From an uncultured Parcubacteria group bacterium (lineage in GTDB: Bacteria; Patescibacteriota; Patescibacteriia; UBA9934; CAMTUG01), in assembly GCA_947084965.1 (NCBI GenBank), contig CAMTUG010000001.1, positions 74,166-138,165 on the forward strand: a DNA stretch of 64,000 nucleotides, read 5' to 3'. Position numbers and translations under genes: made by a program. Every line of letters begins with the position of its first letter. Within the stretch, counting starts at the first letter, position 1. Of this stretch, positions 2 through 58,117 are shown piece after piece. The notes beneath the pieces are model-generated. The model ran no database searches. It saw nothing but the letters and a program-made list of their open reading frames with translations, and was not told the DNA's origin.

Positions 2-1552
2 AAAGTTACGCTCGGGCCAAAGGGCCGCAACGTGATTGTGGATCGCGGATTTGGTTCGCCGATGGTGACCAAAGACGGTGTGTCAGTGGCGAAAGAGATC
101 GAGTTGCCAGATAAGTTTGAAAATCTTGGAGCGGAGCTCGTGAAGGAGGCGGCGAGCAAGACGAACGACGTGGCAGGGGACGGCACCACGACCGCGACCG
201 TCCTCGCTCAGGCGATCGTGGAAGAGGGGCTGAAGAACGTGACTGCGGGGACGAATCCTTTGCAGATTCGTCATGGGATCGAAAAGGGCGTGGCCGCGAT
301 CGTGGCTGAACTCAAAGCGAATATTGCCAAACCGGTACAAGGCGATGAGATCGAACATGTCGCCGCAATCAGTGCCAATGATCCAGAGATCGGTAAGATG
401 ATCGCTCAGGCGATGGAGAAGGTCGGTAAGGATGGCGTCATTACGGTTGAAGAGGCACAAACGTTTGGAATCGATGTCGATGTGGTCGAGGGGATGCAGT
501 TCGATAAGGGCTACCTCTCGCCGTACATGGTCACCAATCAGGAACGGATGGAAGCGGTTTTTGAAGATGCCGAAATCTTGATCACCGACCGCAAGATCAG
601 CTCGATCACGGACATCCTTCCGATTCTCGAAAAGCTCGCTGCAAGTGGAAAGAAGCAGTTGGTGATTCTGGCCGAAGATGTAGACGGCGACGCCTTGACC
701 ACCCTTCTGGTGAACAAACTACGTGGGGGATTCCATGCCCTTGCGATCAAAGCGCCGGCGTTTGGTGATCGCCGCAAAGCGATGCTTGAAGATATCGCCA
801 TTTTGACCGGCGGGAAGGTGATCAGCGAAGAAGTTGGATTGAAACTCGAGAACGTGGAGCTCGCGGACCTCGGCCATGCCCGCAAAGTCGTTTCAACCAA
901 AGATACGACGACGATCGTTGAAGGCCGAGGAAGCGCGGAGGCGGTGAAGTCACGCGTGGATCAGTTAAAGGCGCAGGTTGCTGAAACAGAATCTGAGTTT
1001 GATCGCGAGAAGTTGATGGAACGGATGGCCAAGTTGGCTGGCGGCGTGGCCGTTATTAAAGTCGGCGCGGCGACGGAAACGGAAATGAAAGAGATTAAAC
1101 ATCGTGTGGAAGATGCCGTTGCGGCGACCAAAGCGGCGGTGGAAGAGGGGATCGTGCCAGGGGGCGGGGTGGCGCTTCTTCGTGCTGCACACGTGCTCGA
1201 CGATCTGTCGGTTGAGGCGGGGGAAGAGATCGGTTTGAACATCCTGCTTCGTGCGGTTGAAGCTCCGGTGCGGGCGATTGCGGATAACGCCGGCATGGAC
1301 GGCTCGGTCGTTGTGGCCAAGATTAAAGAAGGGACGGGAGCGTTTGGATTCAACGCCCTTGAAAATCGTTATGAAGATATGATCGTTGCGGGGATTATCG
1401 ATCCGGCCAAAGTCAGCCGTACCGCGCTGCAAAATGCTGCGTCCGTCGCGGTCATGATTCTGACCACCGAGTGTGCGATCGTTGATCTACCAAAGGAAGA
1501 AAAGGGAGATGACGGACACGGGCACGGGGGAGGTGGAATGGGGATGTACTAA
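2..1552 (+). CDS. groL: Chaperonin GroEL (Cpn60), 5'-truncated by window edge
   Basis: Frame continues from window start ([24 protein letters not shown]); typical GroEL length and GGM-rich C-terminus. Confidence 0.95.
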
Positions 1553-1573
1553 AAGATTCAAGCAAAGGCGGGG

Positions 1574-1607
1574 CTTTCGAGCCTCGCTTTTGTTCCGCCT
1601 CCCCACG
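1574..1607 (+). terminator. Rho-independent terminator after groL
   Basis: GC hairpin gcggggc-tttcgag-cctcgc followed by ttttgtt. Confidence 0.5.
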
Positions 1608-1698
1608 CGCTACGCAGAATCCCACCACGACATAGATTCTTGGCCATGAATGTCGTGGTGGGATCCTGCTCCGCGGTGGGGATTGCTTGGCCTGACTT

Positions 1699-1708
1699 GT
1701 GCTATACT
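1699..1708 (+). promoter_or_regulatory. Extended -10 promoter TGcTATACT, 9 nt before ATG (near-leaderless)
   Basis: TGCTATACT motif recurs upstream of several genes in this window. Confidence 0.5.
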
Positions 1709-1717
1709 TTTCCTACT

Positions 1718-2068
1718 ATGCAAGAACAACATCTGTCCGAGGTCGATAAGAAAGATATGGAGGAGAACAAGGTCGTGGCCGCCATTGGGTACCTTTTTAT
1801 CCTCTGCCTGTTGCCGCTTCTTGGCAAAAAAGATTCCAAGTTTGCTCAGTTCCATGGCAAACAGGGATTGGTGCTGACGATCGCCGCGGTCGTGCTCTGG
1901 GTCGCTTCGTTCATCCTCGCCTTTATTCCGATCATCGGCTGGCTGGCGATGTTTGTTGGCTGGATCGCCCTTGTGGTCCTCGCGATCATGGGCATCATGA
2001 AAGCGTTGGCAGGTGAGTATTGGGAGATGCCGTTTTTGGGCCAGTACGCTAAAGAGATTAAGTTATAA
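1718..2068 (+). CDS. Small membrane protein, DUF4870-like
   Basis: 3 predicted TM segments, conserved FHGKQ motif; ATG at 1718 just after the promoter motif. Confidence 0.6.
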   Translation: MQEQHLSEVDKKDMEENKVVAAIGYLFILCLLPLLGKKDSKFAQFHGKQGLVLTIAAVVLWVASFILAFIPIIGWLAMFVGWIALVVLAIMGIMKALAGEYWEMPFLGQYAKEIKL

Positions 2069-2181
2069 ATTCGAAATACGAAATCCGAAATTCGAAACAA
2101 ATTCAAATGCCAAATTTAAAAATTCGAATTTTCTCATTCTGATTTACCGATTGTTTCGTATTTCGACATTCGAATTTCGCA
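2068..2181. repeat. Palindromic intergenic repeat, CGAAATACGAAA family, copy a
   Basis: Arms ttcgaaatacgaaa..cgaaacaa and ttgtttcgtatttcg are reverse complements; ends 4 nt before prfB ATG. Confidence 0.7.
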
Positions 2182-2184
2182 TAT

Positions 2185-3319
2185 ATGAGTGATTTACTCA
2201 ATCAGATCCAATCGCTCCAGTCTCGTGTGGCAGAGACGTGGGGCTTACTTTGATGTCGATCAGATGAAAACCGAGCTCAAGAATCTGGAGTCGCAGATGG
2301 CGACACCGGATTTTTGGTCTGATCAGAAGAAGGCGGCAGAGGTGAGTCAGAAGGCCGGGGATATTCGGAATGAAGTTGAACGCTGGGAGAAGGTGAAAGG
2401 AGATATCGATGCTCTGTTTGAGTATGAGCAACTGGCCGAACAAGAAGGAGTGACAGACGTCGCCGAAGGCGAAAGTCTGTTACAGCTTGCTGAACTTGAA
2501 AAAACGTTTACAGAACTCGAGTTCCGTACCTTGTTTAATGAACCGTACGATGTGAACAACGCCATCGTCGCGTTTCATGCGGGGAGCGGCGGAACGGAGG
2601 CTAACGATTGGACGGAGATGCTGGTACGCATGATCATGCGGTTTTGTGAAAAGAAAGGATTCAAAATTGATATTTTGCACGAGTCGCGGGCAGAAGTGAC
2701 CGGATTCAAAAGTTTGATGATGCGGGTCAGCGGTCGCTTCGCCTACGGCAACCTCAAATCTGAAAGTGGTGTCCATCGCTTGGTGCGCATCTCACCGTTT
2801 GATGCGGAGAAGATGCGTCACACCACGTTTGCGCTGATCGAAGTGATGCCGGAATTGGAAGATGTGGCTGAGATCGAGATCGATCCCAAAGATCTGCGCA
2901 TCGATACCTTCCTTGCTGGCGGCCACGGTGGGCAGAGTGTGCAGACGACGTACTCGGCGGTGCGCATCGTTCACTTACCAACAGGAATTACCGTGTCCTG
3001 CCAAAATGAACGTTCACAAGCCCAGAACAAAGAGGTGGCCATGAAGGTGTTGAAATCAAAACTTCATCTGTTGGCCCTCAATGCACGCAAGAAGGAAAAC
3101 TCAGAACTGCGGGGCGAATACACCTCGGCCGAGTGGGGGAACCAAGCACGATCGTACGTTCTGCATCCGTATAAATTAGTGAAAGACCATCGTACGGAGT
3201 ACGAAACGCAGGACGCGGAAGATGTGTTAAACGGCGATCTGGATGCGCTGATCGAATCGTATTTGCGATGGAAGCTCGCGGAAAATTCGAAAATCGAAAA
3301 TCGAAATACGAAACAATAG
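2185..3319 (+). CDS. prfB: Peptide chain release factor 2, programmed +1 frameshift at CTT TGA C (2248-2253)
   Basis: Frame-1 ORF MSDLLNQIQSLQSRVAETWGLL stops at TGA, continues +1 as DVDQ...; GGQ motif; C-terminal tail (ENSKIENRNTKQ) encoded by repeat copy b. Confidence 0.9.
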
Positions 3320-3392
3320 GGAAAATCGAAAACGTTTGCGCATTTCCGGTTTTCCGATTAGGATTTGTTTGAGATTTCGGATTCCGTATTTC
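3283..3392. repeat. Palindromic intergenic repeat, copy b (overlaps prfB 3' end)
   Basis: cgaaaatcgaaatacgaaacaat ... atttgtttgagatttcggattccgtatttc inverted arms. Confidence 0.7.
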
Positions 3393-3398
3393 AACTTT

Positions 3399-4331
3399 AT
3401 GGCCAAATATAAGAAAGCTCTTGTCACCGGTGGCGCCGGGTTCATTGGATCACATATTGTTGATGCCTTGATTAAGCGTCGTATTAAGGTGTACGTCGTT
3501 GATGATCTGTCGGCGGGAAAGCGGTCGAATATCAATCCCAACGCTGTTTTTTATAAGATTTCGGTGGCCAATCCGGCCGTGATGAAACTGATCGAAAAGA
3601 TCAAACCGGATGTCGTTTTTCATCTGGCTGCCCAGATTGATGTGCGTTGTTCGGTGGAAGATCCGCCGCACGATGCCCGAGTGAACGTTCTTGGTACGCT
3701 GCACGTTGCTCACGCCGCGGCCAAGGCCGGGGTTAAGAAGTTTATTATGACCTCAAGCGGAGGGGCGATGTATTCGGACGATGTGCGCCCTCCGTACACC
3801 GAGGCAACGCCCGCTGACCCGATTTCGCCTTATGGCATCGCCAAACGGACCGCCGAGATGTATCTGGATTTTGAACATCGGATCCACAATCTTCCGTGCG
3901 TGGTGTTGCGTTTAGCCAATGCCTACGGACCACGCCAACGACTAAGCGGCGGATACGCTGGGGTTATTTCCAAGTTCGCTTCCAACATGCTACAGGGAAA
4001 GCAATGCATGATCACCGGAAGCGGGAAGCAGACGCGCGATTACGTCTACGTCAGCGACATCGTTCGTGCAGAGATACTGGCGATGGAGAAAGATGTCAAA
4101 GGGATCTATCATATCGGGACAGGCAAGGAGACGAGCGTGACCCAGTTGTTTAAAAAGATCAATGCCATTACTTCGGCCAAACAGAAAGAGGTTCATGTGC
4201 CCGCTTGTCAGGGGGAAGTGATGCGTTCCGCGCTTGATGCGCGTAAGGCGCGGCGTGATTTGGGTTGGAAGCCAGAGGTCATGCTCGACGAAGGATTGAA
4301 ACGAACGATCGAGTGGTTCAAGAAAAAATAG
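3399..4331 (+). CDS. NAD-dependent epimerase/dehydratase (GalE-like)
   Basis: GGAGFIGSH Rossmann motif, YGIAK catalytic YxxxK; start MAKYKK. Confidence 0.8.
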   Translation: MAKYKKALVTGGAGFIGSHIVDALIKRRIKVYVVDDLSAGKRSNINPNAVFYKISVANPAVMKLIEKIKPDVVFHLAAQIDVRCSVEDPPHDARVNVLGTLHVAHAAAKAGVKKFIMTSSGGAMYSDDVRPPYTEATPADPISPYGIAKRTAEMYLDFEHRIHNLPCVVLRLANAYGPRQRLSGGYAGVISKFASNMLQGKQCMITGSGKQTRDYVYVSDIVRAEILAMEKDVKGIYHIGTGKETSVTQLFKKINAITSAKQKEVHVPACQGEVMRSALDARKARRDLGWKPEVMLDEGLKRTIEWFKKK

Positions 4332-4884: not shown

Positions 4885-5654
4885 TCGCCAAGAAATCATT
4901 CGGTCAACACTTTTTGCATGATCATCGCGTGATCGAAAAGATTATCGCTGCGGCAGAGATCACCCCCGGTGAAACGGTGATCGAAGTCGGGCCAGGGCAT
5001 GGGGTGCTGACCAAAGCGCTGGTTGAAGCGGGGGCCAAGGTGATCGCTATCGAAGCAGATCGTGATCTGATCACGGAGCTTGAAGTGAAGTTCCCTCAGG
5101 CCAAGATTATTTTTTCCGACGTTTTAAAAGTGGACATTTCTGATCTGTCTCGCATTTCGAATTTCGCATTTCGAAATTATAAAGTTGTTGCTAACTTGCC
5201 GTACAACATTGCCTCTGCGGTGATTGAAAAGTTTTTTACCGCGCCCATTCCGCCGTCGGAGATGATCGTGATGGTGCAGAAAGAAGTTGCAGATCGGATT
5301 CTCGCCGCACCAGGGGAGATGAGCGTTCTGTCGGTCGCTTGTCAGCTGTACGCCGACGTTTCGCGGGTGACCAATGTCGCTCCAGGGGCTTTTTCCCCGC
5401 CGCCCAAAGTAGAATCCGCCGTGATCCGTTTGGAGACCAAAAAACGAAGGATCAAAAACGAGGAGATCATCCAGTTGGCTAAAGTTGGCTTTTCTTCGCG
5501 CCGCAAACAGCTGCACGGTAACCTTGCTGCGGCACAGGTCGCTTCGTCAGAGGAGGTCAAGCGATCCCTGCAGGCGCTCGGTCTGGCCGCGACCGCTCGC
5601 GCCCAAGAACTTTCGGTGGATAACTGGGCTCAGCTCTTCGAGAAGCTCCGTTGA
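4881..5654 (+). CDS. rsmA: 16S rRNA (adenine1518/1519-N6) dimethyltransferase
   Basis: FGQHFL, VIEVGPGHGVLT SAM motif, NLPYNI; ATGA overlap with tsaC. Confidence 0.9.
   Translation: MIAKKSFGQHFLHDHRVIEKIIAAAEITPGETVIEVGPGHGVLTKALVEAGAKVIAIEADRDLITELEVKFPQAKIIFSDVLKVDISDLSRISNFAFRNYKVVANLPYNIASAVIEKFFTAPIPPSEMIVMVQKEVADRILAAPGEMSVLSVACQLYADVSRVTNVAPGAFSPPPKVESAVIRLETKKRRIKNEEIIQLAKVGFSSRRKQLHGNLAAAQVASSEEVKRSLQALGLAATARAQELSVDNWAQLFEKLR
5151..5178. repeat. Partial copy of CGAAAT repeat embedded in-frame in rsmA (encodes SRISNFAFRN)
   Basis: cgcatttcgaatttcgcatttcgaaatt inside the CDS. Confidence 0.4.
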
Positions 5655-15500: not shown

Positions 15501-15541
15501 CTAAAAAGCGTTGACCACCATGGAGTGTACATGGTGGTCGT
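15501..15541 (-). terminator. Rho-independent terminator of lipoprotein gene, copy 1 of duplicated hairpin
   Basis: gaccaccatgg-agtgtac-catggtggtc then GCTTTTTAG on minus strand; near-identical copy at 16589-16628. Confidence 0.65.
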
Positions 15542-15586
15542 GCGCGCGCCGGGGATGTGTCCTCGGCGGAAGAAGTTGTGGCCCGA

Positions 15587-16243
15587 TCAGAGGCGGGTGC
15601 AGGTGTAGCGGTAGTTCGCACCCCCGTCGGTGTTGACGACCCGGCCGGTCAGCGTGTCGGTGCCCTCGAGGATGAGCTTGATGTAGCCGTCCTGGTGGGT
15701 GAACTCGACGAAGTTGCCGTTGATCGTCGCCGTGTTGTTGCCGACCGCGATGCCTTCCATCTGGAGAGCACAGCCGTTGTTGATCTCGGCCGTGACCCCG
15801 TTGTACACCGTGGCGCCCGACTCGCTCGAGCAGTCCCAGGTCCCGGACAAGTCGGCGCAGAGGTTGCCGGACAGGTCGGCGATCTCGCTGACGTCGTTCG
15901 ACCCGTAGCCGAGGTAGTTCACGCCGTTCGCGCTGTAGGTGTACGCGGCGGTGTGGATCTCGGGGGAGAGGCCGTCGATGTAGTCGATCGTCTTGCGGCC
16001 GGTCTGGACGCCGTCGATCGCGTAGTCGGCGCTGATCTCCTCGGTGTCGACGAGGGTGAACTCGGTGAAGTCGTCGTTGGCCTCGTAGGTGTTGAGGCTC
16101 GCGGCGGCGAGCACGTCGTTGACGGTCTCCTCGGTGCCGTCGGTGTTGTCGGGGTTGGTGTCGAGATCGCGGCCGTCGGTGACGGTCGGATCGGTGATGT
16201 CCCCGCCGCACGCGGCGAGGAACACGAGGGCGATGAAGCGCAT
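15587..16243 (-). CDS. Lipoprotein, acidic D/T/G-rich, GC-rich gene (paralog of 16676-17284)
   Basis: Start MRFIALVFLAACGG (lipobox LAAC) with AGGAGG RBS; about 68 % GC. Confidence 0.7.
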   Translation of the reverse strand: MRFIALVFLAACGGDITDPTVTDGRDLDTNPDNTDGTEETVNDVLAAASLNTYEANDDFTEFTLVDTEEISADYAIDGVQTGRKTIDYIDGLSPEIHTAAYTYSANGVNYLGYGSNDVSEIADLSGNLCADLSGTWDCSSESGATVYNGVTAEINNGCALQMEGIAVGNNTATINGNFVEFTHQDGYIKLILEGTDTLTGRVVNTDGGANYRYTCTRL

Positions 16244-16588: not shown

Positions 16589-16628
16589 TAAAAAGCGTTG
16601 ACCACCATGGAGTGTGCATGGTGGTCGT
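16589..16628 (-). terminator. Rho-independent terminator, copy 2 of duplicated hairpin
   Basis: ttgaccaccatggagtgtgcatggtggtc plus T-run on minus strand. Confidence 0.65.
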
Positions 16629-16675
16629 GCGCGCGCCTCGGGGAAGTATCCGTGGCGGAAGAAGTTGTGGCCCGA

Positions 16676-17284
16676 TCAGCGGCGGCAGGTCACGGTCCCG
16701 TATTGGGCACCGGTGTTCCCGTAGACGTTGAGGGTGATCACTGAGCCGTCCAGGGACACGATGCCGTCGTAGTCCTCGGAGGAGAAGTGGTGGCCGTCCA
16801 GCATGATCTCGGTGTCCATCCCTGACTCGACATGACAGTCATCAGAGACCTCGATGTAGTTCTCCCAGCTTGGGTACTCGGTTCCGTCGTACGTGTTCTG
16901 ACATACCCACTCATCCGTCAGGTCCAGACAGAGCTCGGTGGACAGTTCGGCGGTCTCGCCGACGTCGATCGGTGCCTGACCGAAGTACGTCGCGCCCTCG
17001 TCGCTGGTGAAGGCGAAGGTCACGGTGTAGTCCTGGGGGTCGAGGCCGTCGATGGTGTCTGGGGTGGTGCCGGTGATGTCGGTGCCAGCGATCGCGTAGG
17101 TGACGCCTTCCACTTCCTGGAGGTCTTCGATGACCTCGGTCATGTCATCGTTCCAGTCGGCGAAGTTGATCGTGGCGGTGATGGTCACCGTCATGTTGTT
17201 GATCGCGGGCGGGGTGCTCGTGTCCTTGCTCGTCGAGGTGGTGTCGGTGCAGGCGGCGAGGAGGATGAGGGTGATGAGGTGCAT
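16676..17284 (-). CDS. Lipoprotein, acidic, GC-rich (paralog of 15587-16243)
   Basis: Start MHLITLILLAACTD (lipobox LAAC); shared C...W.C...C...TC.R framework with paralog. Confidence 0.7.
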   Translation of the reverse strand: MHLITLILLAACTDTTSTSKDTSTPPAINNMTVTITATINFADWNDDMTEVIEDLQEVEGVTYAIAGTDITGTTPDTIDGLDPQDYTVTFAFTSDEGATYFGQAPIDVGETAELSTELCLDLTDEWVCQNTYDGTEYPSWENYIEVSDDCHVESGMDTEIMLDGHHFSSEDYDGIVSLDGSVITLNVYGNTGAQYGTVTCRR

Positions 17285-20286: not shown

Positions 20287-20372
20287 CAACAACATCAATC
20301 GACAGGGGGCGGATGGCTACTCCATCCGCCCACCTTCGCTTACGAAACTGAACTAGTTTGAGCGTCAAAACC

Positions 20373-20395
20373 TGAGGTCACAATTTGTGACCTCA
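20373..20395. repeat. Perfect 23-nt palindrome tgaggtcacaatttgtgacctca (operator-like)
   Basis: Self-complementary; 29 nt upstream of ORF6N gene. Confidence 0.7.
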
Positions 20396-20423
20396 AGTTA
20401 CGCAGTCAGAATGATTCTAAAAT

Positions 20424-20927
20424 ATGGAAACGAATATTCCCATCGAACGTATCTATCAAAATATTTATCTCATTCGGGGAAAAAAGGTTATGTTAGATTC
20501 TGATCTGGCTATCCTTTATGGTGTAGAGACAAGATCCCTAAACCAAGCCGTGCGTCGCAATATCGAACGTTTTCCGGAAGACTTTATGTTTGAACTAAGC
20601 TCAGTTGAGCTAAAATCTTTGAGATCACAAATTGTGATCTCAAACGGTCGAGGTGGAGCCAGATATGGCCACATGGTTTTTTCTGAATACGGAATCGCCA
20701 TGTTATCGAGTGTTTTGCGAAGTGAAAAGGCGGTGCAGGTCAATATTCAGATCATTCGGGCATTTATTGCTCTGCGTGACTTTGTGCTTAGTAATGATGA
20801 TTTGCAGATGAAAATCGAAGCACTTGAATTGCGTTATGACGGCGAGTTGCGTTCAGTTTTCGATGCTCTGAATCGTCTTCTGACTGAAGAGGAGAAGCCG
20901 GAACCAGAAATCGGCTTCAAAACTTGA
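20424..20927 (+). CDS. ORF6N/KilA-N domain protein (phage antirepressor-like DNA-binding)
   Basis: KVMLDSDLAILYGVETRSLNQAVRRNIERFPEDFMFEL signature. Confidence 0.7.
   Translation: METNIPIERIYQNIYLIRGKKVMLDSDLAILYGVETRSLNQAVRRNIERFPEDFMFELSSVELKSLRSQIVISNGRGGARYGHMVFSEYGIAMLSSVLRSEKAVQVNIQIIRAFIALRDFVLSNDDLQMKIEALELRYDGELRSVFDALNRLLTEEEKPEPEIGFKT
20619..20643. repeat. Perfect 25-nt palindrome ttgagatcacaaattgtgatctcaa inside ORF6N gene
   Basis: Identical to copy at 20925-20949. Confidence 0.7.
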
Positions 20928-20949
20928 GATCACAAATTGTGATCTCAAA
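20925..20949. repeat. Perfect 25-nt palindrome overlapping ORF6N stop codon
   Basis: ttgagatcacaaattgtgatctcaa. Confidence 0.7.
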
Positions 20950-25586: not shown

Positions 25587-26018
25587 ATGCCTGATCAATT
25601 TGTCGTCCCTCAATTTATCGATGTCGAGGATAAAATTTTAGGACCGCTTTCGGTGCGGCAGTTTGTGATTTTGCTCCTGGTGCTGCTAACGGACGCCTTG
25701 CTCTATAAGCTCCTCACCTTTGGAAAGTTTATGATGGTGGGGATTCCGGTGATCATCATCGGTGGGGTGTTCGCTTTTGTGAAGATTAACGGCCAGCCGT
25801 TTCATTATGCTCTTCTGAATATCGTACAGACGCTTCGTAAACCGGGGATTCGGGTGTGGGATAAGCACCTGACCGACGGCGAGGTGCGTAGTTTTATTAC
25901 AGAAGAAGCAGCCCCGCCACCGCCACCACCGGTCCGTAAGGCTGCGCTTACTTCGAGCCGTTTGTCTGAGCTGTCCCTCGTCGTCAACACAGGTGGGGTT
26001 TACAATCCAGAGGAATAG
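25587..26018 (+). CDS. Small 2-TM membrane protein, possibly VirB3/PrgI-like
   Basis: Two hydrophobic helices, poly-Pro stretch; position in T4SS-like locus. Confidence 0.35.
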   Translation: MPDQFVVPQFIDVEDKILGPLSVRQFVILLLVLLTDALLYKLLTFGKFMMVGIPVIIIGGVFAFVKINGQPFHYALLNIVQTLRKPGIRVWDKHLTDGEVRSFITEEAAPPPPPPVRKAALTSSRLSELSLVVNTGGVYNPEE

Positions 26019-26021
26019 TAT

Positions 26022-26137
26022 GAAATTCGAAATACGAAGTACGAAACAATCGGAAAATCAGAAAGGGAAAGTTTCAAAATTTCCTCTTTCCGATTCGAAT
26101 TTGTTTCGGATTTCGATATTCGAATTTCGTATTTATA
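26022..26137. repeat. Palindromic intergenic repeat, copy d
   Basis: gaaattcgaaatacgaagtacgaaacaat ... attcgaatttgtttcggatttcgatattcgaatttcgtattt. Confidence 0.75.
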
Positions 26138-26146
26138 GCGAGCGGT

Positions 26147-26851
26147 ATGGCCAAAGATAAGAACACCTTAGCAAAACCGAAGCCGGGTCCAGCGACCCAG
26201 CGGTATTTGGATATCGCCGAAATCCGCGATGACATGGTGCTGTTGAAGGACGGCACGGTTCGCGGGGTGTTGATCGTCTCTTCGCTTAACTTTGCGTTGA
26301 AGTCGCACGATGAACAGCAGGCGATTATTCAGGCATACATGTCCTTCTTGAACGGGATCGAATATCCAATTCAGATCGTGGTGCAGTCGCGCAAAATGAA
26401 CATTGATAAGTATATTGAGGAGATGCGCGAACAGTGGCGCAATCAAACAAATGAGTTGCTGAAAACGCAGATCCAGGAATATATCGGTTTCATCACCCAG
26501 CTCGTCACCCTTGGGGAGATCATGACCAAGCGTTTCTTCGTCGTCGTTCCCTATGACCCGGTGACCAACAGCAAGAAAAAGTTTTTGTCGCGGGTGGGGG
26601 AAGCATTTTCCCCAGCGAAACTTTTCAAACTCAAGCGGAAGCAGCTTGAAGAGCGCAAGCGCGAATTAGATCAGCGCCTATCTCTCATTCAAAGTGGGCT
26701 CGGTTCGATGAGTTTGCAGTCCGTGCGGCTCGATACCCAGGGGCTGATTGAACTCTATTATTCGGTGTACAATCCTGAGCAGGCCGAAGTACAAAAATTG
26801 GAAGACGTCAATAAATTGCGGGTCGAAGATTCGGGTGCAGTAAGTCTCTAG
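26147..26851 (+). CDS. Hypothetical protein, VirB4 N-terminal-domain-like
   Basis: KDGTVRGVLIVSSLNF...IEYPIQIVVQS resembles VirB4/TraC N-domain logic. Confidence 0.35.
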   Translation: MAKDKNTLAKPKPGPATQRYLDIAEIRDDMVLLKDGTVRGVLIVSSLNFALKSHDEQQAIIQAYMSFLNGIEYPIQIVVQSRKMNIDKYIEEMREQWRNQTNELLKTQIQEYIGFITQLVTLGEIMTKRFFVVVPYDPVTNSKKKFLSRVGEAFSPAKLFKLKRKQLEERKRELDQRLSLIQSGLGSMSLQSVRLDTQGLIELYYSVYNPEQAEVQKLEDVNKLRVEDSGAVSL

Positions 26852-26855
26852 TATG

Positions 26856-26950
26856 AAATTCGAAATACAAAATACGAAGTACGAAACAATCGGAACATCT
26901 GAAGGAGAAAATCAGAAAATTTCGAATTTCGATATTCGGATTTCGTATTT
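26856..26950. repeat. Palindromic intergenic repeat, copy e
   Basis: Near-identical to copy d at both ends. Confidence 0.75.
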
Positions 26951-26958
26951 ATCATAGT

Positions 26959-28947
26959 ATGGCGATTGAAATTGGCAAATTAGATTTTCCCAAAGAGATT
27001 CGGCCGCCGGCGCCGGTGAAACCGCCTTCTGCGGAAGAGTTGCGCGCGGCGCAAGAACGGGTGGCGCTGGAAGAAGAGCGGATCTATCGCCGCGGGGTCG
27101 TTTCGATTAAGGATCTGATCGCTCCGGCGAGTTTTGAAGTCACCCCGGAATATGTTCGGCTCGGCGACACGTATGTGCGGACGATGTTTGTCGTCAACTA
27201 TCCGCGCTACGTTGGGGTGGGCTGGTCTGCACCGATCATTAATTTCAACGCCACGCTCGATATCGGGATGTTCTTTTATCCCGTGCCGGCGCCGATTATT
27301 TTGAAGCAGTTGAAAAAGAAGGTCGGTATTCTCGAAGCGACGATCGTGGCGGACTCAGAAAAAGGGATGCCGCGCGATCCGATGCGCGAAACGGCGTTGC
27401 GCGACATTGAATCGTTACGCGATAATCTGACGCAGGGGGTCGAGCATTTTTTCCAGTTTGCTTTTTACGTTTCCATTTACGCCAAAAACAAGGATGAACT
27501 GGATAACCTTTCCAAGCAGATTGAATCGCAGTTCGGTTCGAAGTTGATTTACACCAAGACCGGTTATTATCAGAGCGAGCAAGGGTTCAACTCGACGATG
27601 CCGCTTGGCAACGACGAATTGACGATCACCTTCAACATGAACACCAGCCCGATCGCTTCGTCCTTTCCGTTCATTTCGGCGGACTTAACGAGCGATCATG
27701 GGATTTTGTACGGGATCAATCGTCATAACAACTCGCTCATTCTCTTCGACCGTTTTTCGTTGCCGAACGCCAACGCCTGTGTTTTTGCGACCTCTGGTGC
27801 AGGGAAGTCGTACACGGTGAAACTCGAAGTACTGCGCTCGATGATGATGGGGTGTGACGTCTTGATTATCGATCCGGAAATGGAATACAAGCATCTTTCG
27901 GACGCGGTTGGCGGAAGTTACATCAACATTTCACTCGCTTCAGAATCGAAGATCAATCCGTTCGACCTGCCGCGTGCGAAAGGGGAAGAGACGAAATCTG
28001 AAGATATCATTCGCAGCGCGGTTATCACCATCAAGGGGCTGTTGCGCATCATGATCGGTCTGCCTTCGGGTGAGCAGGGCAAGCTTGGATTTACGCCAGA
28101 AGAAGATTCGATTCTCGACCGGGCGTTGCTCGAAGCGTACGCCAAGCGCGACATCACCGCGGATACCCGCGATCTTTCCGTGGTTGAGCCGCCAATTTTG
28201 CAAGATTTGATCGATGTGCTTGAAGGGATGGAAGGGGCCAATCAGCTCGTTGCGCGTCTGAATAAATATACGGACGGAACGTTCGCTGGGTTACTCAACT
28301 CGCCAACTACGGTCGAAACCCGCAATCAGCTTGTTGTCTTTTCGGTCCGCGATTTGGAAGACGAGCTGCGTCCGATCGCCATCTATACGATCGTCAACTA
28401 CATTTGGAACGTGGTGCGTTCGGAACGCAAGAAGCGCATTTTGGTGATTGATGAAGCCTGGTGGTTGATGCAGCACGAAGATTCAGCTAAGTTTATTTTT
28501 GCTCTGGTCAAACGCTGCCGCAAATATTATCTTGGAGTCACAACGATCACTCAGGATGTGAATGATTTCTTAGGCTCACCGTACGGACAGGCGATTGTCA
28601 CCAACTCGCAGATGCAGATTTTGATGAAACAATCTCCGGCGTCGGTAGATCTGATTCAAAAAACGTTCAACCTGACGGACGGAGAAAAGTTCTTGCTGAT
28701 GGAATCCGGCGTTGGGGAAGGGATCTTCTTTGCCGGACGCAATCACGCGGCGATCAAGATCGTTGCCTCCTACGCAGAAGATCAGATCATCACGACCGAC
28801 CCGCGGCAATTACTGCAGATTGAGGAATCTAAAAAAGAGTTTGAGGCGGCGTTAGCCGAAGCGGCTGGGCCAGAGGACGAAGTCGTTTCTGATGAACCGG
28901 CATCAGCCCCAACAACGGAATCAACCCCTCAACCACCAACAGCATAA
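26959..28947 (+). CDS. T4SS ATPase VirB4/TrbE/CagE family
   Basis: Walker A FATSGAGKSYTV, Walker B VLIIDPE. Confidence 0.85.
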   Translation: MAIEIGKLDFPKEIRPPAPVKPPSAEELRAAQERVALEEERIYRRGVVSIKDLIAPASFEVTPEYVRLGDTYVRTMFVVNYPRYVGVGWSAPIINFNATLDIGMFFYPVPAPIILKQLKKKVGILEATIVADSEKGMPRDPMRETALRDIESLRDNLTQGVEHFFQFAFYVSIYAKNKDELDNLSKQIESQFGSKLIYTKTGYYQSEQGFNSTMPLGNDELTITFNMNTSPIASSFPFISADLTSDHGILYGINRHNNSLILFDRFSLPNANACVFATSGAGKSYTVKLEVLRSMMMGCDVLIIDPEMEYKHLSDAVGGSYINISLASESKINPFDLPRAKGEETKSEDIIRSAVITIKGLLRIMIGLPSGEQGKLGFTPEEDSILDRALLEAYAKRDITADTRDLSVVEPPILQDLIDVLEGMEGANQLVARLNKYTDGTFAGLLNSPTTVETRNQLVVFSVRDLEDELRPIAIYTIVNYIWNVVRSERKKRILVIDEAWWLMQHEDSAKFIFALVKRCRKYYLGVTTITQDVNDFLGSPYGQAIVTNSQMQILMKQSPASVDLIQKTFNLTDGEKFLLMESGVGEGIFFAGRNHAAIKIVASYAEDQIITTDPRQLLQIEESKKEFEAALAEAAGPEDEVVSDEPASAPTTESTPQPPTA

Positions 28948-32902: not shown

Positions 32903-32979
32903 GCGCCCGTAGCTCAGTTGGATAGAGCGTCAGGTTGCGGACCTGAAGGTCGCATGTTCGAGTCATGCCGGGCGCACCA
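32903..32979 (+). tRNA. tRNA-Arg, anticodon reads GCG (unusual), CCA encoded
   Basis: Acceptor gcgcccg/cgggcgc, D-loop with A20, T-loop TTCGAGT, anticodon loop ttGCGga. Confidence 0.75.
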
Positions 32980-32985
32980 CAAAAT

Positions 32986-33016
32986 AAAAAACACCCACCG
33001 GGTGATTTTTTATTTT
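32986..33016 (+). terminator. Rho-independent terminator after tRNA-Arg
   Basis: caccc-acc-gggtg hairpin then ATTTTTTATTTT. Confidence 0.6.
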
Positions 33017-33162
33017 GCGGCATGACTCGAAATGGGGAAAGGGGTTCGGGGAAAACGGGAGTTTTCCCCGCGAGGCCGCGGCGGAGGAAGGGGTGACAGC
33101 GAGCATATGCGAGCGCCAGAGGGGAAACGACGTTTCCCCATGGAGAGGAGCGGAGCGACGAT

Positions 33163-33222
33163 GTTCGCGTCATGCCGGGCGCACCACAAAATAAAAAACA
33201 CCCACCGGGTGATTTTTTATTT
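33163..33222 (+). repeat. 60-nt direct duplicate of tRNA-Arg 3' end plus terminator (attR-like)
   Basis: 59/60 identity to 32956-33015. Confidence 0.7.
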
Positions 33223-35243: not shown

Positions 35244-35285
35244 TCGTGGGGTCTCGAAAAGTACTTTTTTCGAAGGTATATCGGT

Positions 35286-35362
35286 CAGGTTAACATCGGG
35301 TTAATCCTAGGTAACGATTAGGTAACATCCAGGTTAAGGTTCAAAAAATAGTTTTTTGAGAT
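35286..35362. repeat. Iteron-like repeat (five helically phased AGGTWAC units plus A/T hairpin), copy A
   Basis: About 80 % identical to 57934-58005. Confidence 0.6.
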
Positions 35363-35397
35363 GCCCAGAGCCGCGAGGATAATTCGTGAATTTGCCC

Positions 35398-43357: not shown

Positions 43358-43470
43358 AGAAATCCGAAATTCGAATATCGAAATACGAAATAAGCGGAAA
43401 CCGGAAAGTTCGAATTTCAAATTTTTCTCTTTCCGATTCGAATTTGTTTCGTATTTCGAATTTCGTATTT
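43358..43470. repeat. Palindromic intergenic repeat, copy f (between htpX stop and clpC start)
   Basis: gaaatacgaaat...ttgtttcgtatttcgaatttcgtattt. Confidence 0.75.
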
Positions 43471-43477
43471 TTTATCT

Positions 43478-44392
43478 TCATACCCCCATGCTACGCAGGC
43501 GTTTAATGCGTTCTTCAACAGGCGGATGTGTGGAGAACCAGGAGGCGAGTTTGTTTCCCGGCCCGAACGGGTTTGAGATGTAGAGGTGGGCGGTGGCGTG
43601 GTTGGCCTTTTTCATCGGAGCGCCGTACGCCCGGATCTTTTCGAGAGCGCTGGCTAATCCTTCAGGGTAGCGGGTCAGAAGCGCACCGGATGCGTCTGCC
43701 AAATATTCGCGTTGGCGTGATACGGCGAGTTTAATCAGTTCGGCAAAAAACGGAGAGAGGATCGAGAGGACGAGGCCGATCACAAAGAGGGCGATCGTTG
43801 CTTGATTGTGTTCGCGATTGCGACCAAACATGAACGAGCGTAGCATCCAGTCTGCAAGCAAGGTCACGATACCGACGAGGACGATGACGATCGTCATCAC
43901 GAGGATGTCGTAGTTTTTGATGTGCGACATCTCGTGAGCCAGCACCCCTTCAAGTTCTTTTTTCTCCATGATACGCAGAAGCCCGGTCGTCACGGCTACG
44001 CTCGCATGTTCAGGGTTGCGGCCGGTAGCGAAGGCGTTTGGGGCATCGTCTTGAACGATGTAGACCTTGGGCATTGGGGTGCCGTTGGTGATCGCCAGAT
44101 TCTCGATAATTCTCCAGAGTTCCGGGGCCTGATCCTTTTCAATCTGTTTTGCTCCGGAAGTGGCGAGGGCTAATTTGTCGCCGCCGAAGTAACTGATGAG
44201 CGACATCGTCGTCGCAAGGATCGTCGCAAGAACGATTCCGCTCGTGGCATCGCCATTTGCTTCCCCGAAGACCCAACCGATCGTCAGAATCAGGACGGAG
44301 AAGAGGGTGACCAGCAAAACGGTTTTGCGTTTGTTGGAAGCAATCTGGTTATACACAGAAATACGAAATACGAATATCGAAATTCGAAACAA
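43478..44392 (-). CDS. htpX: Zinc metalloprotease HtpX (M48); annotated N-terminus (MFRISIFVFRISV) is repeat-encoded and start is uncertain
   Basis: HEMSHIKNYD HExxH motif, 4 TM. Confidence 0.8.
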   Translation of the reverse strand: MFRISIFVFRISVYNQIASNKRKTVLLVTLFSVLILTIGWVFGEANGDATSGIVLATILATTMSLISYFGGDKLALATSGAKQIEKDQAPELWRIIENLAITNGTPMPKVYIVQDDAPNAFATGRNPEHASVAVTTGLLRIMEKKELEGVLAHEMSHIKNYDILVMTIVIVLVGIVTLLADWMLRSFMFGRNREHNQATIALFVIGLVLSILSPFFAELIKLAVSRQREYLADASGALLTRYPEGLASALEKIRAYGAPMKKANHATAHLYISNPFGPGNKLASWFSTHPPVEERIKRLRSMGV

Positions 44393-44478
44393 TTGGAAAC
44401 GTGAAAGGGAAACGTGTTTGCGAATTTTCTCTTTTCATTTCGAATGTGTTTCGTATTTCGTTTTTCGAATTTAGAATT
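44357..44478. repeat. Palindromic intergenic repeat, copy g (between lemA stop and htpX start)
   Basis: gaaatacgaaatacgaatatcgaaattcgaaacaat ... gtgtttcgtatttcgtttttcgaattt. Confidence 0.75.
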
Positions 44479-45025
44479 TAACCGCTGGAGCCTGGTGGAC
44501 TTCATCTGGGGCGTCAAAGAAATCGCGTTTGGTGAATTTGAGCATTCCAGCGATCAGGTTGGCAGGGAAGGTCTGTTGGGTCGTGTTGAAGTCGCGGACG
44601 TTGGCGTTGTAGAATCGGCGCGCGGCTTGGATTTTATCTTCGGCGTCTGAAAGCTCGGTCTGCAAGTGCAAGAAGTTTTGTGACGCTTGGAGGGCCGGAT
44701 AATTTTCGGCGACCGCGAAGAGGGACTTCAAGGTGTTGGTCAGCATGTTTTCTGCTTCGGCGTGCTGAGCAGCAGTTGTTGCGCCCATGGCGGCGGAACG
44801 CGCTTTGGTCACGTTCTCAAAGACCGACGATTCGTGTTTGGCATACCCTTTGACCGATTCGACCAAGTTCGGGATCAGATCGTAGCGGCGTTTCATCTGC
44901 ACTTCGATGTCCGACCAGGCTTCATCTGTACGATTGCGAAGCGTGATAAGCTTGTTAAACAACATCACGATCCAGAGGATCAACACCACGATCACGGCCC
45001 CGAGGATCAGCGGCAAATACATCAT
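44471..45025 (-). CDS. lemA: LemA family protein
   Basis: N-terminal TM plus conserved LemA region (NRTDEAWSDIEVQMKRRYDLIPNLV). Confidence 0.8.
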   Translation of the reverse strand: MMYLPLILGAVIVVLILWIVMLFNKLITLRNRTDEAWSDIEVQMKRRYDLIPNLVESVKGYAKHESSVFENVTKARSAAMGATTAAQHAEAENMLTNTLKSLFAVAENYPALQASQNFLHLQTELSDAEDKIQAARRFYNANVRDFNTTQQTFPANLIAGMLKFTKRDFFDAPDEVHQAPAVKF

Positions 45026-49400: not shown

Positions 49401-51797
49401 ATGGCCAATATTCTCGCTTCTTACGACTGGATCAAAGAGCATCTTAAAACAGACGCCTCCGTGGCTGAGTTTGCCAAAAAGATGACTGACGCGGGGAACA
49501 GTGTCGAACACATTCATGATGTTGCTGAAGCCTACAACGGGATCGTTGTTGGTCGTATTTTGGTCGTTGATGCCCATCCGAATGCGGACAAGCTTCGCGT
49601 GGTCACGGTAGACGTTGGTAAGAAGGTGCAGATCGTTTGTGGTGGGTTAAATCTCGAAGTTGATCAGTTGGTCTGCGTTGCTCTGCCTGGAGCAAAAGTG
49701 CGTTGGCATGGGGAAGGTGAGTTGATTGAGTTGAAAGAGGCCGAGCTCCGTGGTGTGCAATCGTTTGGGATGATCTGTGCGCCTGACGAAGTTGGATTTG
49801 AAAAGTTGCAGGCCGGGGAAAAGATGATTTGGGATCTGACCAACGTTACGGATGCGAAACCCGGGACGCCACTTGTCAAAGCGCTCGGGCTCGAAGATAC
49901 TTTGTTTGATATTGAAGTGACGACCAATCGACCGGACGCCATGTCGATTGTTGGGCAAGCAAGAGAGGCAAGTGCTTGTGGGTTAGGAAAATTCGAAATG
50001 CGAAAATCGAAATTCGAAACAAGTGGAAAGTCAGAAGGAAAAAATGGGAAAATGGATCTCAAGGTGTCGGTCAAAGATAAAGATTTGTGCCCACGCTACC
50101 AAGCGGTGGTGATCGAAGGGGTCAAGGTTGCGCCATCACCGTGGTGGATGCAGAAGCGTTTATTGCTCTCTGGTCATCGTCCGATTAACAACGTGGTCGA
50201 TGTGACTAATTACGTTTTGCACGAGCTCGGTCAGCCGCTGCATGCTTTTGACGCCGACACGCTTGAAGGGCAAGAGATCATCGTGCGCAAAGCCAAAAAG
50301 GGAGAGAAGATCCTGGCGCTCGATGGGAAAGAATACGAACTCGATGCCTCGATGCTGGTGATTGCTGATGCAAAGAAACCGGTTGCCGTTGCTGGGGTGA
50401 TGGGGGGAGAGCTTACAGGAACAAAAGAAGGAACAACACGCCTCGTGATTGAATCTGCGGTGTTCGATGCTGTATCTGTCCGTCGCACGGCTCGCACCCT
50501 CAACTTGTATTCTGACTCTTCCAGCTTGTTTGAAAAGGGGCTTTCGCCGGAAGCGACAACCGGAGCGATTGAACGAGCGATTGAACTTATCTGTGAATTG
50601 ACCGGTGGTCACGTTGCCTCGGTCATCTACGATGCGCGTGCGGAAAAGTACAAACCGGAAGTGTATCCGTATGACGCCAAGCGCATCAGTGATGTGATCG
50701 GCCTTGATGTCCCAGAGAAAAAGCAAAAGGAGATTTTGGAAGCACTCGGGTTTGTTATCGATGGAAAAAAAGCGACCGTTCCGTATTGGCGCGATCATGA
50801 CATCGAAGATGCGATCGACTTGGCTGAAGAGGTCGCCCGGGTGGTGGGTTATGCCAATGTGCCGTCGGTCATTCCAACAGGGGAGATTCCGGTTACGTTG
50901 CCCGATCCAAAGATTGTCTGGGAGCGGAAGCTGAAAAATATTCTGAAAGGCGCTGGCGTCAGCGAGGTGTACAGCAACGCCTTTGTTTCCGAAGCGATAC
51001 TCGGCAAGTACAAGATTCCGCTCGATGCGGCCAGTAAATTGGAAAATCCGCTGACCGATGAATGGGTGTACATGCGCCCGACGCTTGTACCGAGTATGCT
51101 CACAGTAATTGAAGAAAATCAGCGACGCTTTGAAGCGGCCGCATTATTCGAGCTCAACCACGTGCACCATCCGCGCAAAGGGGATATTCCTTCCGAAGAT
51201 TGGCGCCTGTTAATTGCCGGTTACGGTCCAGACGGCGGGGCGCAAGCGTTCCGTTATGTCAAAGGAATCCTCGAGCGCGTGTTGCGAGAAGCGGGCGTGG
51301 CTGCGGTTAGCTTTGAATCGGGCGGAGCAGACGATCACTTCCACCCAGGCCGCAGCGCCAAAGTCATCGCTGGAAAAGATATGGTCGGGACGATCGGCGA
51401 ACTCGCGCCGCACTACGCGCAGGCGTTCGGTATCGACCGTCGCGTTGTTCTGGCTGACCTGAATCTCGATCATCTCTTGCCACACTTAGGTGCTGGCAAG
51501 CGCTATCAGCCAACCCCAGAGTTCCAAGACCTGATCCGCGACTTGTCATTCGTCCTCCCGGAACGCAAAACGCACGCCGAAGTGCAGGCGGCGCTGGTTG
51601 GAGTTGATCCATTGATCAGTAGTGTTTCCCTCGTCGACGTCTATCAAGGGAAAGGGATCGAGGCGGGACAGAAGTCAATGACGTATCGCTTATCTCTGCG
51701 TGCCTCTGATCGCACATTGTCTTCCGACGAAGCTGATGCGGTCATGAACTCTGTTGGAAAGATGCTCACTTCCGATTTTGGTGCTATACTACGGTAG
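49401..51797 (+). CDS. pheT: Phenylalanine--tRNA ligase beta subunit (contains in-frame repeat insertion 49988-50030)
   Basis: tRNA-binding, B3/B4, B5, FDX-ACB domains; start MANILASYDW. Confidence 0.9.
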   Translation: MANILASYDWIKEHLKTDASVAEFAKKMTDAGNSVEHIHDVAEAYNGIVVGRILVVDAHPNADKLRVVTVDVGKKVQIVCGGLNLEVDQLVCVALPGAKVRWHGEGELIELKEAELRGVQSFGMICAPDEVGFEKLQAGEKMIWDLTNVTDAKPGTPLVKALGLEDTLFDIEVTTNRPDAMSIVGQAREASACGLGKFEMRKSKFETSGKSEGKNGKMDLKVSVKDKDLCPRYQAVVIEGVKVAPSPWWMQKRLLLSGHRPINNVVDVTNYVLHELGQPLHAFDADTLEGQEIIVRKAKKGEKILALDGKEYELDASMLVIADAKKPVAVAGVMGGELTGTKEGTTRLVIESAVFDAVSVRRTARTLNLYSDSSSLFEKGLSPEATTGAIERAIELICELTGGHVASVIYDARAEKYKPEVYPYDAKRISDVIGLDVPEKKQKEILEALGFVIDGKKATVPYWRDHDIEDAIDLAEEVARVVGYANVPSVIPTGEIPVTLPDPKIVWERKLKNILKGAGVSEVYSNAFVSEAILGKYKIPLDAASKLENPLTDEWVYMRPTLVPSMLTVIEENQRRFEAAALFELNHVHHPRKGDIPSEDWRLLIAGYGPDGGAQAFRYVKGILERVLREAGVAAVSFESGGADDHFHPGRSAKVIAGKDMVGTIGELAPHYAQAFGIDRRVVLADLNLDHLLPHLGAGKRYQPTPEFQDLIRDLSFVLPERKTHAEVQAALVGVDPLISSVSLVDVYQGKGIEAGQKSMTYRLSLRASDRTLSSDEADAVMNSVGKMLTSDFGAILR
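49988..50030. repeat. Half copy of CGAAAT repeat inserted in-frame in pheT (encodes KFEMRKSKFETSGK)
   Basis: ttcgaaatgcgaaaatcgaaattcgaaacaagtggaaag. Confidence 0.6.
51782..51790 (+). promoter_or_regulatory. Extended -10 promoter TGCTATACT inside pheT 3' end, 8 nt before next ATG
   Basis: Motif match. Confidence 0.45.
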
Positions 51798-57827: not shown

Positions 57828-57933
57828 AGTGATCGAATTATACTCGGGCGGGGGGTTCATTTAAAGACGGTGGGCGGCGGCTCGCCAGCAAGTTGTGTGG
57901 TGAAAAATCGCATTTTTCGATCATATATCATTC

Positions 57934-58005
57934 TGGTTATTAGGAGGTTAATCGTAGGTAACAGTTAGGTTACATCTAGGTTAAGGTTGAAAAAGTGACT
58001 TTTTT
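57934..58005. repeat. Iteron-like repeat, copy B
   Basis: tggttattaggaggttaatcgtaggtaacagttaggttacatctaggttaaggttgaaaaagtgactttttt. Confidence 0.6.
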
Positions 58006-58117
58006 AGCTAACTACAGCCACGGACCATTGACAAAATGGCTTTTTTGTGCTATCCTGCTCGGTCCGGCATCTGGTCCATACAGATGATTTCCCCCGGGTC
58101 CGGCCCCAAGGATTGTC

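Follow-up and report, generated by a model that had tools for sequence, protein, structure and literature searches.

Palindromic elements at gene junctions in the window

A family of short palindromic repeats lies in a 64,000-nt stretch of DNA from a Parcubacteria group bacterium (contig CAMTUG010000001.1, positions 74,166–138,165; 53.5% GC), the whole of which is referred to as the window. The repeats are probably copies, lacking an open reading frame (ORF), of a selfish, non-autonomous palindromic insertion element. The element falls in the behavioural class of the Rickettsia palindromic elements (RPEs) and of palindromes that resemble MITEs (transposable elements of the miniature inverted-repeat type). 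The window contains six full copies and two half copies, and the six full copies are lineage-specific insertions.

The first-pass annotation, made from the letters of the window, had placed full copies at 2068–2181, 3283–3392, 26022–26137, 26856–26950, 43358–43470, and 44357–44478. All six are present, and the boundaries given by a profile of the family are nearly identical. Two half copies had been overlooked, both inside ORFs. The eight loci, with their nhmmer E values, are as follows.

Copy 1, 2067–2182: full; from a MamF/MmsF-like membrane protein gene to prfB; E = 3e-21.
Copy 2, 3283–3397: full but degenerate; from prfB to a galE-like gene; E = 1e-16; hairpin z = −0.04, no better than shuffles.
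Copy 3, 26021–26134: full; from a PrgI-like gene (stop TAG 26016–26018) to a TraC-like/VirB4-N gene (ATG 26147); E = 1e-20.
Copy 4, 26856–26950: centre deleted; from the TraC-like gene (stop TAG 26849–26851) to virB4 (ATG 26959); E = 6e-11.
Copy 5, 43360–43470: full; from htpX (stop 43478–43480, minus strand) to clpC (ATG 43351–43349, minus strand); E = 1e-18.
Copy 6, 44359–44479: full; from lemA (stop 44471–44473, minus strand) to htpX (GTG 44356–44354, minus strand); E = 2e-19.
Half copy, 5120–5177: right arm with three TTTCGNN heptamers; within coding DNA of rsmA/ksgA; E = 2e-6.
Half copy, 49990–50033: left arm with four CGAAANN heptamers; within coding DNA of pheT; E = 9e-7.

The element consists entirely of an inverted repeat, is 95–121 nt long in the window, and contains no transposase ORF. 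The arms are built from 7-nt units, which read CGAAANN in the left arm and NNTTTCG in the right one. The sequence CGAAANNCGAAANNCGAAA, with up to two mismatches, occurs 35 times at the eight loci, compared with 0.43 occurrences expected from shuffles. The copies are AT-rich, with a GC content of 29–35% against the 53.5% of the window. A repeat search of the window groups the six copies into direct and inverted families. The long hairpin anticipated from their reverse-complementary arms can be formed by all six, but it is imperfect and of very uneven quality, with z scores ranging from −0.04 to −6.4. At −44.6 kcal/mol and z = −6.4, copy 3 forms the strongest hairpin.

Each copy was expected to end within 15 nt of a downstream start codon, and the gaps are indeed 2, 1, 12, 8, 8, and 2 nt for copies 1–6. 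The start of the copy lies −37 to +7 nt from the upstream stop codon. Since stop and start both adjoin the element, each copy occupies the whole intergenic spacer between two co-directional genes. The first bases of copy 1 overlap the stop codon TAA (2066–2068) of the MamF/MmsF-like gene, and the ATG of prfB follows at 2185, on the side of the arm that carries the ATAT motif. Copy 2 supplies the last 11 codons of prfB together with its stop codon TAG (3317–3319), and the ATG of the galE-like gene (3399) lies 1 nt past it. The stop codon of lemA falls within the first heptamers of copy 6; the native end of lemA, AAATTCTAA, is similar to the terminus of the element.

A database protein identical to the galE-like product (P0121; 320 aa) begins 10 codons upstream of the ATG at 3399, inside copy 2. 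The database start is probably miscalled. The annotation is corrected on two counts: the NCBI galE-like protein starts inside an element, and the tail of prfB is encoded by one.

The two half copies do not lengthen their host proteins. The one in rsmA/ksgA encodes ...SRISNFAFRNY... in a variable loop and adds no length when aligned with solved KsgA structures. The one in pheT encodes GKFEMRKSKFETSGK, and the same array is found at the same codon position in pheT of the relative L121 (L-numbers are labels of compared stretches from other genomes).

Orthologous junctions lack the element in relatives

The homologues of HtpX, the GalE-like protein, and VirB4 come from Patescibacteria, the nearest being Uhrbacteria. 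Relatives with 74–86% protein identity have the same gene order around the window copies. The junctions corresponding to copies 1 and 3–6 are spacers of 2–13 nt and contain no element. The copy 1 junction reads TAA-C-ATG in L246. The junctions of copies 3 and 4 are 9–13 nt and 2–8 nt, respectively, in L249 and L250, and those of copies 5 and 6 are 2–3 nt and 3–9 nt in L121 and L124. When 73 kb of the relatives' DNA was searched with the family profile, no full element was found, compared with six in the 64-kb window; the sole match was the pheT half copy. The element-free orthologous sites indicate that the six full copies were gained in the lineage of the window after its split from these relatives. 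Presence/absence polymorphism at orthologous sites, a property by which MITEs are recognised, is thus observed.

The site of copy 2 is also without an element in relatives and differs in its gene content. There, an additional gene of 196–223 aa lies between prfB and galE, and prfB has a different C terminus. This suggests an element-associated deletion of the intervening gene in the lineage of the window. The extra gene is located at 2889–3479 in L246 and 3034–3705 in L248, and copy 2 sits exactly at its position (window 3283–3399).

These comparisons point to a selfish element whose copies would persist only where harm is small: in the 2–13 nt spacers between co-directional genes and once in place of the last codons of prfB. 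Genomes of the candidate phyla radiation, roughly 1 Mb in size and with gene spacers of 2–13 nt, would then still have taken up selfish DNA recently.

A family spanning more than ten phyla

A pattern made from the inner arms, CGAANNNCGAAAYA-N40-65-TGTTTCGNNTTTCG, was scanned over 596 Gb of sequence. It is a 22.5-base pattern for which about 0.9 chance matches are expected, and it matched at least 119 stretches of other genomes. A profile of 130 positions was built by aligning 120 elements from other genomes and contains no window sequence. This external profile recognises all eight window loci with E values of 2e-6 to 3e-21, which places the window copies in the family of ~130 nt.

The alignment reveals sharp element ends, 5'-AAATYCGAA...TTCGRATTT-3', beyond which the flanks are random. 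Each arm is composed of 4–5 well-conserved CGAAANN heptamers followed by 3–4 degenerate CAAAANN heptamers, and the two arms are inverted about a centre of variable length (30–78 nt). The 7-nt period extends into the centre, but the heptamer phase is not continuous across it, as the spacing shows no mod-7 preference. The two arms are not equivalent. One has CGAATAT at its third unit, the other has GCA/GTA-type units, and this asymmetry is conserved.

The following survey of carriers refers to the matches listed. They include many classes of Patescibacteria, as well as Omnitrophota, Planctomycetota, Chlamydiota, Desulfobacterota, Verrucomicrobiota (including Kiritimatiellia and Lentisphaerae), Nitrospirota, Nitrospinota, Chloroflexota, Acidobacteriota, and low-GC Gammaproteobacteria, more than ten phyla altogether. 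Firmicutes, Actinobacteria, Bacteroidota, Cyanobacteria, Alphaproteobacteria, and Archaea are not represented. The GC content of the carrier loci ranges from 32% to 67%. All carriers are metagenome-assembled genomes (MAGs) except one single-amplified genome (SAG), and none is an isolate.

The lack of isolates raises the question of an artefact, since errors of amplification or assembly can create palindromes, and low complexity, chance, or chimeric joins in metagenome assemblies could be invoked as well. Such an origin is extremely improbable. At least 119 matches stand against the ~0.9 expected by chance, and the copies differ from one another. The element is present in complete chromosomes assembled from long reads (OZ246404.1 and OY775912.1) and in the single-cell genome, and two independent assemblies of related species share an element locus. 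Protein domains flanking in-frame inserts are intact.

The family is apparently undescribed. Literature searches with heptamer strings and keywords returned only primers and unrelated papers. Rfam scans of the window and 16 loci at gathering thresholds detected only tRNAs and one 16S rRNA, and permissive scans hit only generic miRNA-hairpin models, far below threshold. A metagenome scan for the window-specific subfamily gave two irrelevant matches only. Phage was considered as a vector and rejected: the full element is on only three contigs of IMG/VR, and blastn found no match among PLSDB plasmids or INPHARED phages.

Two further observations were made during these searches. Perfect tandem heptamers, (TTTCGAC)n, (CGAAAGT)n, and (TTTCGGG)n, occur in many IMG/VR viral contigs (L001–L120) near similar flanking motifs, and are regarded as a phenomenon distinct from the palindromic element. 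In the Parcubacteria MAG L172, an element at 815–944 adjoins the 3' end of a 16S rRNA gene (933–3063). That gene is 2,131 nt long, compared with 1,533 positions in the model, and so carries insertions itself.

In-frame members inside conserved genes

Stop codons are nearly absent from the arms in all six frames; the arms taken by themselves have 5.4 open frames, compared with 3.2 in shuffles. At least one frame is open in 117 of 135 elements, and 2.05 of the six frames are open on average, against 0.27 in shuffles. In other genomes, family members survive in frame within genes, where they add ~40 aa. Two such elements are found in the TsaD of a Saccharibacteria MAG, forming inserts of 41 and 38 aa in an alignment to PDB 8iey. 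The N domain of a gammaproteobacterial transketolase is split by another. Further in-frame elements are found in a class I aminoacyl-tRNA synthetase (one), a DUF2298 protein (two), and a PBP (one). The encoded peptides are related to each other, with the form NPKSEYRNPKQ...NLDIVSNFDIRASDF. In the window, coding cases are limited to the prfB tail and the two half copies.

In-frame insertion into unrelated genes with a conserved peptide is the hallmark of RPEs (review PMC10969869). Like RPEs, the present elements are palindromes of ~100–150 bp without a transposase gene, and are found both between genes and in frame within unrelated housekeeping genes (PMC10969869). The likeness is one of behaviour. 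RPEs are confined to Rickettsia, while the host of the window belongs to Patescibacteria, no alphaproteobacterium is among the 119 carrier stretches listed, and the arms are built from CGAAANN heptamers. Together with the empty sites in relatives, the in-frame members bear out the proposal in the first-pass annotation of a non-autonomous, RPE- or MITE-like element. RPE-like in-frame inserts in essential genes, earlier regarded as a peculiarity of Rickettsia, belong here to a family that many uncultured phyla share.

No evidence for a structured regulatory RNA

The placement of the copies had also led to the suggestion of a cis-regulatory RNA in the 5' untranslated region (UTR), in which the hairpin before the start codon would control translation or transcription of the downstream gene. 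All six copies end 1–12 nt from the start codon, and no Shine-Dalgarno sequence was found between copy and start. Heptamer arrays of another kind, TAACTGA, also lie upstream of starts and offer a precedent (PMC4679880). The copies are, however, as close to the upstream stops, and the same genes are found in relatives without an element. The position before starts is not a property of the family either. In 77 co-directional contexts from other genomes, the median distance of the element to the upstream stop is 12 nt, and that to the downstream start is 32 nt; it is nearer to the stop in 47 and nearer to the start in 28. The closeness to start codons in the window arises because the copies fill spacers of 2–13 nt in a compact genome.

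The structure is not supported by covariation. RNAalifold predicts only 10 pairs from 76 oriented copies, all of which are invariant; compensatory changes are absent, and the covariation term is 0.07. Watson-Crick pairing covers no more than ~71% of the positions in the arms. G·T or wobble pairs have no preference for the sense strand (222 versus 208, p = 0.53). Heptamers at mirrored positions are complementary in 7% of cases, compared with 21% by chance, and their variable positions are anti-correlated. Taken together, it is the sequence units, not the base pairs, that are conserved. The heptamers may also be what is recognised, rather than the pairs, probably by a protein that maintains or moves the element.

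The copies were described as having one orientation relative to the downstream gene. Orientation is not self-evident in a palindrome, but the arm asymmetry provides a mark for it. By this mark, five of the six indeed place the ATAT arm next to the start codon; copy 2 is too degenerate to call. In other genomes, the orientation relative to transcription is only weakly biased (37 versus 21, p = 0.048). This bias and the five callable copies in the window would be in line with a leader RNA.

No promoter-like or terminator-like sites were detected in scans of the elements, and no Rfam family matches them. The downstream genes are heterogeneous: prfB, the galE-like gene, type IV secretion genes, clpC, and htpX share no function. 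Some family members lie inside ORFs. Neither a structure backed by covariation nor a constant position before a coherent set of genes, the features by which a cis-regulatory RNA is recognised, was found. Evidence for a structured regulatory RNA was thus not obtained, and a leader function is very unlikely. Apart from the weak orientation bias, copies elsewhere display neither the positional preference nor the covariation on which the first-pass annotation had made its suggestion depend, and the suggestion is not supported.

As parts of an insertion element, the copies would be co-transcribed with the operon. The imperfect hairpin may loop out and thereby hold the upstream stop and the downstream start close to each other.

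A proposed link to PF05635 proteins

The Berkelbacteria MAG L175 contains an element in which the same two arms enclose ~370 nt encoding a 121-aa protein of the PF05635 family (E = 2.5e-14), annotated as 23S rRNA intervening sequence protein; proteins of this family are not known to be transposases. Among solved structures, the nearest is 2rld, with five chains. The ATG of the gene is located within the inner-arm motif CAAATGACCAAAAT. The motif is kept in 26 of 136 ORF-less copies, including the first codons of the ORF, as expected of derivatives formed by internal deletion. The window family appears to be the ORF-less form of a PF05635-carrying element that shares its arms.

In 2.1 Mb of loci, one more PF05635 gene is present, in L169; the arrays on its flanks are made of another heptamer, CAATGNN. 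Eight further PF05635 genes, chosen by protein similarity alone, are from plasmids of cultured cyanobacteria, Bacteroidota, and Chloroflexota. At all ten loci (eight from plasmids and two from MAGs), the non-coding DNA beside the gene has its strongest period at 7 or 14 nt (values of 0.41–0.71), and the adjacent coding DNA has no 7- or 14-nt period. Arrays on opposite sides of a gene are often inverted relative to each other. A general connection between PF05635 genes and heptamer arrays was not found in any paper.

The plasmid hosts (L255–L262) are Nostoc, Anabaena, Planktothrix, Pseudanabaena, Euhalothece, Bernardetia, Chondrinema, and Chlorohelix. In the plasmids, the genes, annotated as four helix bundle protein, are single small inserts wedged between genes with linked functions, for instance between cas2 and cas1, between the adaptor and permease genes of a resistance-nodulation-division (RND) system, and among restriction-modification genes (between helicase and methylase). 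The arrays are specific to the lineage and include ATTTACG/CCCCAAT, CCAGTGA, ACAGTNN, GTAAAAA, and GAAGAAT.

S23p/PF05635 ORFs are carried by intervening sequences (IVSs) of 23S rRNA genes in Coxiella, Leptospira, and others. The Coxiella IVS has been described as selfish: inverted repeats form its termini, tandem heptamers precede the start codon of its S23p ORF, and RNase III excises it (PMC4990558). IVSs and the present family are both selfish elements bounded by inverted repeats, with a long stem and a sporadic spread across taxa, and L175 has the PF05635 gene between its arms. They also differ. The window copies are ORF-less and lie at operon junctions of mRNA or within ORFs, not in helices 25 or 45 of rRNA, and the heptamer is GACAGAT in Coxiella and CGAAANN in the window family. 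If the window family is the ORF-less form of the PF05635 element, it would be related to the 23S rRNA IVSs, and may descend from an S23p-bearing, IVS-like element.

A broader relationship is possible but tentative. The palindromes could be ORF-less members of a class of "heptamer-armed" selfish elements that is pan-bacterial and has so far gone unrecognised, and in which complete elements encode a pentameric four-helix-bundle protein of the PF05635 (S23p/Avd-like) family. The 23S IVSs, the PF05635 genes wedged between other genes, the TAACTGA and short tandemly repeated repetitive (STRR) arrays, and the RPE-like palindromes would then be one phenomenon. The 4–5 heptamers of each arm would bind the pentamer, and the element would spread without target-site duplication, perhaps by an RNA-mediated route. 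The latter is suggested because the related protein Avd, of diversity-generating retroelements, works with a reverse transcriptase. From the association between PF05635 and heptamers come a function that can be tested for the very large family of S23p or "four helix bundle" proteins, and a candidate explanation for the heptamer repeats of cyanobacteria and sulfur bacteria.

Mobilisation and constraint

Several properties of the family are those of MITEs, namely small size, terminal inverted repeats, the lack of a transposase ORF, and multiple copies. A target-site duplication of fixed length, which is also typical of MITEs, was not found. When offsets are allowed, a repeat of at least 7 nt is present at 4 of 111 copies, compared with ~0.9 expected. 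Direct repeats of 7–10 bp are limited to three or four copies: window copy 4, L232 (7 bp adjoining both sides), and L131 (10 bp). In copy 4, the repeat is TAGTATG (26849–26855 and 26955–26961), the right one offset by 4 nt. TAGTATG consists of a stop codon, one T, and a start codon, and is a common gene junction in the window, where it occurs six times, always on the plus strand.

The view of a selfish insertion element has to be weighed against a number of findings. First, adjacent direct repeats are no commoner at element ends than in permutations. Second, no transposase or other enzyme is enriched among 789 neighbouring ORFs; the neighbouring genes are ordinary and include histidine kinases, ABC transporters, pilB/pilC, and the genes for leucyl-tRNA synthetase and elongation factor G. 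Third, the PF05635 gene is carried by only one of ~140 elements, that of L175, and the window has no PF05635 gene at all. Fourth, median identity is 76% between copies of one genome and 70% between copies of different genomes or phyla, and comparisons within genomes reveal no near-identical, young copies. Fifth, the related deltaproteobacterial MAGs L169 and L231 have an element at the same locus that is 91% identical, with an indel of two heptamers, while the flanks are 64–80% identical. This single case hints at constraint. Taken with the orientation bias and the barely higher identity within genomes, it hints at a constraint beyond pure selfishness.

Such constraint would be explained if the element were maintained by the host under purifying selection, with the heptamer arrays acting as a DNA or RNA binding platform for a conserved oligomeric protein, or as an intercistronic signal for mRNA processing or stability of the REP, ERIC, or RNase III type. 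The consensus is ~70% identical across the phyla despite their wide range of GC content; the element must then either have spread widely by horizontal transfer or be recognised by some conserved factor. The conserved asymmetry of the arms speaks for maintenance, as does the L169/L231 locus. The GC skew has one sign across the window, and the orientation of the copies therefore tracks the gene strand and not the replication strand. In addition, the six copies form three pairs that each bracket one gene (prfB, the TraC-like gene, and htpX), with P ~ 0.001 for random picks from 47 junctions, a value calculated post hoc.

Maintenance by the host is nevertheless unlikely. The element is absent at all orthologous sites of close relatives, and there is no sign that these relatives need it. 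Elements are inserted inside essential coding sequences, and their gene context is inconsistent. Degeneration or truncation is seen in copies 2 and 4 and in the half copies. The identity across phyla may simply reflect saturation of pairwise values, as 4 of every 7 positions are fixed.

Comparison with other repeat families

Several known families of bacterial repeats resemble the palindromic insertion element in part. ERIC (enterobacterial repetitive intergenic consensus) elements, also called intergenic repeat units, Correia elements (CREE/NEMIS), and repetitive extragenic palindromes (REPs) with their mosaic clusters (BIMEs) are likewise non-autonomous imperfect palindromes in operon spacers; they are co-transcribed, and tolerated or exapted as mRNA hairpins. 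ERIC elements are 127 bp in size, near the length of the window family. Correia elements have a TA duplication, REPs are GC-rich, 20–40 nt long, and tagged by GTAG/CGTC, and each of these palindrome families is restricted to a lineage. The window family has no TA duplication and no GC-rich, GTAG/CGTC-tagged form, and is not lineage-restricted. Identity with ERIC or REP was rejected after a blastn search with copy 3 found no match in 5,426 complete E. coli genomes. Integron attC sites were also rejected. The element ends are AAATYCGAA...TTCGRATTT rather than RYYYAAC...GTTRRRY, and the flanks are housekeeping genes in conserved synteny.

TAACTGA heptamer arrays lie just upstream of start codons in Beggiatoaceae, cyanobacteria, and Bacteroidetes and have been proposed to be translational signals (PMC4679880). 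They share with the window family a 7-nt period, a location directly before start codons where ribosome-binding sites are rare, and a patchy distribution across phyla (PMC4679880). Similar ACAGTNN/TAACTG arrays flank the PF05635 gene in Chondrinema. The TAACTGA arrays and the cyanobacterial STRR arrays are, however, direct repeats of one exact heptamer, whereas the window family consists of two inverted CGAAANN arrays with sharp ends.

Contiguous 7-bp units are also found in the operators of plasmid pSM19035, where they are arranged as direct and inverted repeats and read cooperatively by omega, a small oligomeric repressor of the ribbon-helix-helix type. These arrays are promoter operators and not dispersed insertions, and their likeness to the window family is functional only. 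PARCEL repeats are tandem coding repeats of 25 residues, and identity with them was set aside for that reason.

Other repeats in the window

Four other repeats were noticed in the window. A second family of 119 nt has two members, at 35257–35375 and 57904–58022, that share 73% identity. In each, two terminator-like hairpins enclose five or six (A/G)GGTWA(A/C) motifs. The two look like a pair of small-RNA genes, and no Rfam family matches them.

A 26-bp palindrome occurs three times around the ORF at 20424–20927. The sites at 20619–20644 and 20924–20949 are perfect (TTGAGATCACAAATTGTGATCTCAA), and that at 20372–20397 is a variant with 81% identity. All three resemble operator sites.

The 3' end of a tRNA-Arg(GCG) gene with its terminator (32954–33015) is repeated 207 nt downstream, at 33161–33222, with 98% identity. 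The duplication looks like an att-type scar of an integrated or excised element. Finally, a repeat of ~95 nt with 87–98% identity (15502–15596 and 16589–16685) is located at the downstream ends of two paralogous 236-aa ORFs on the minus strand.

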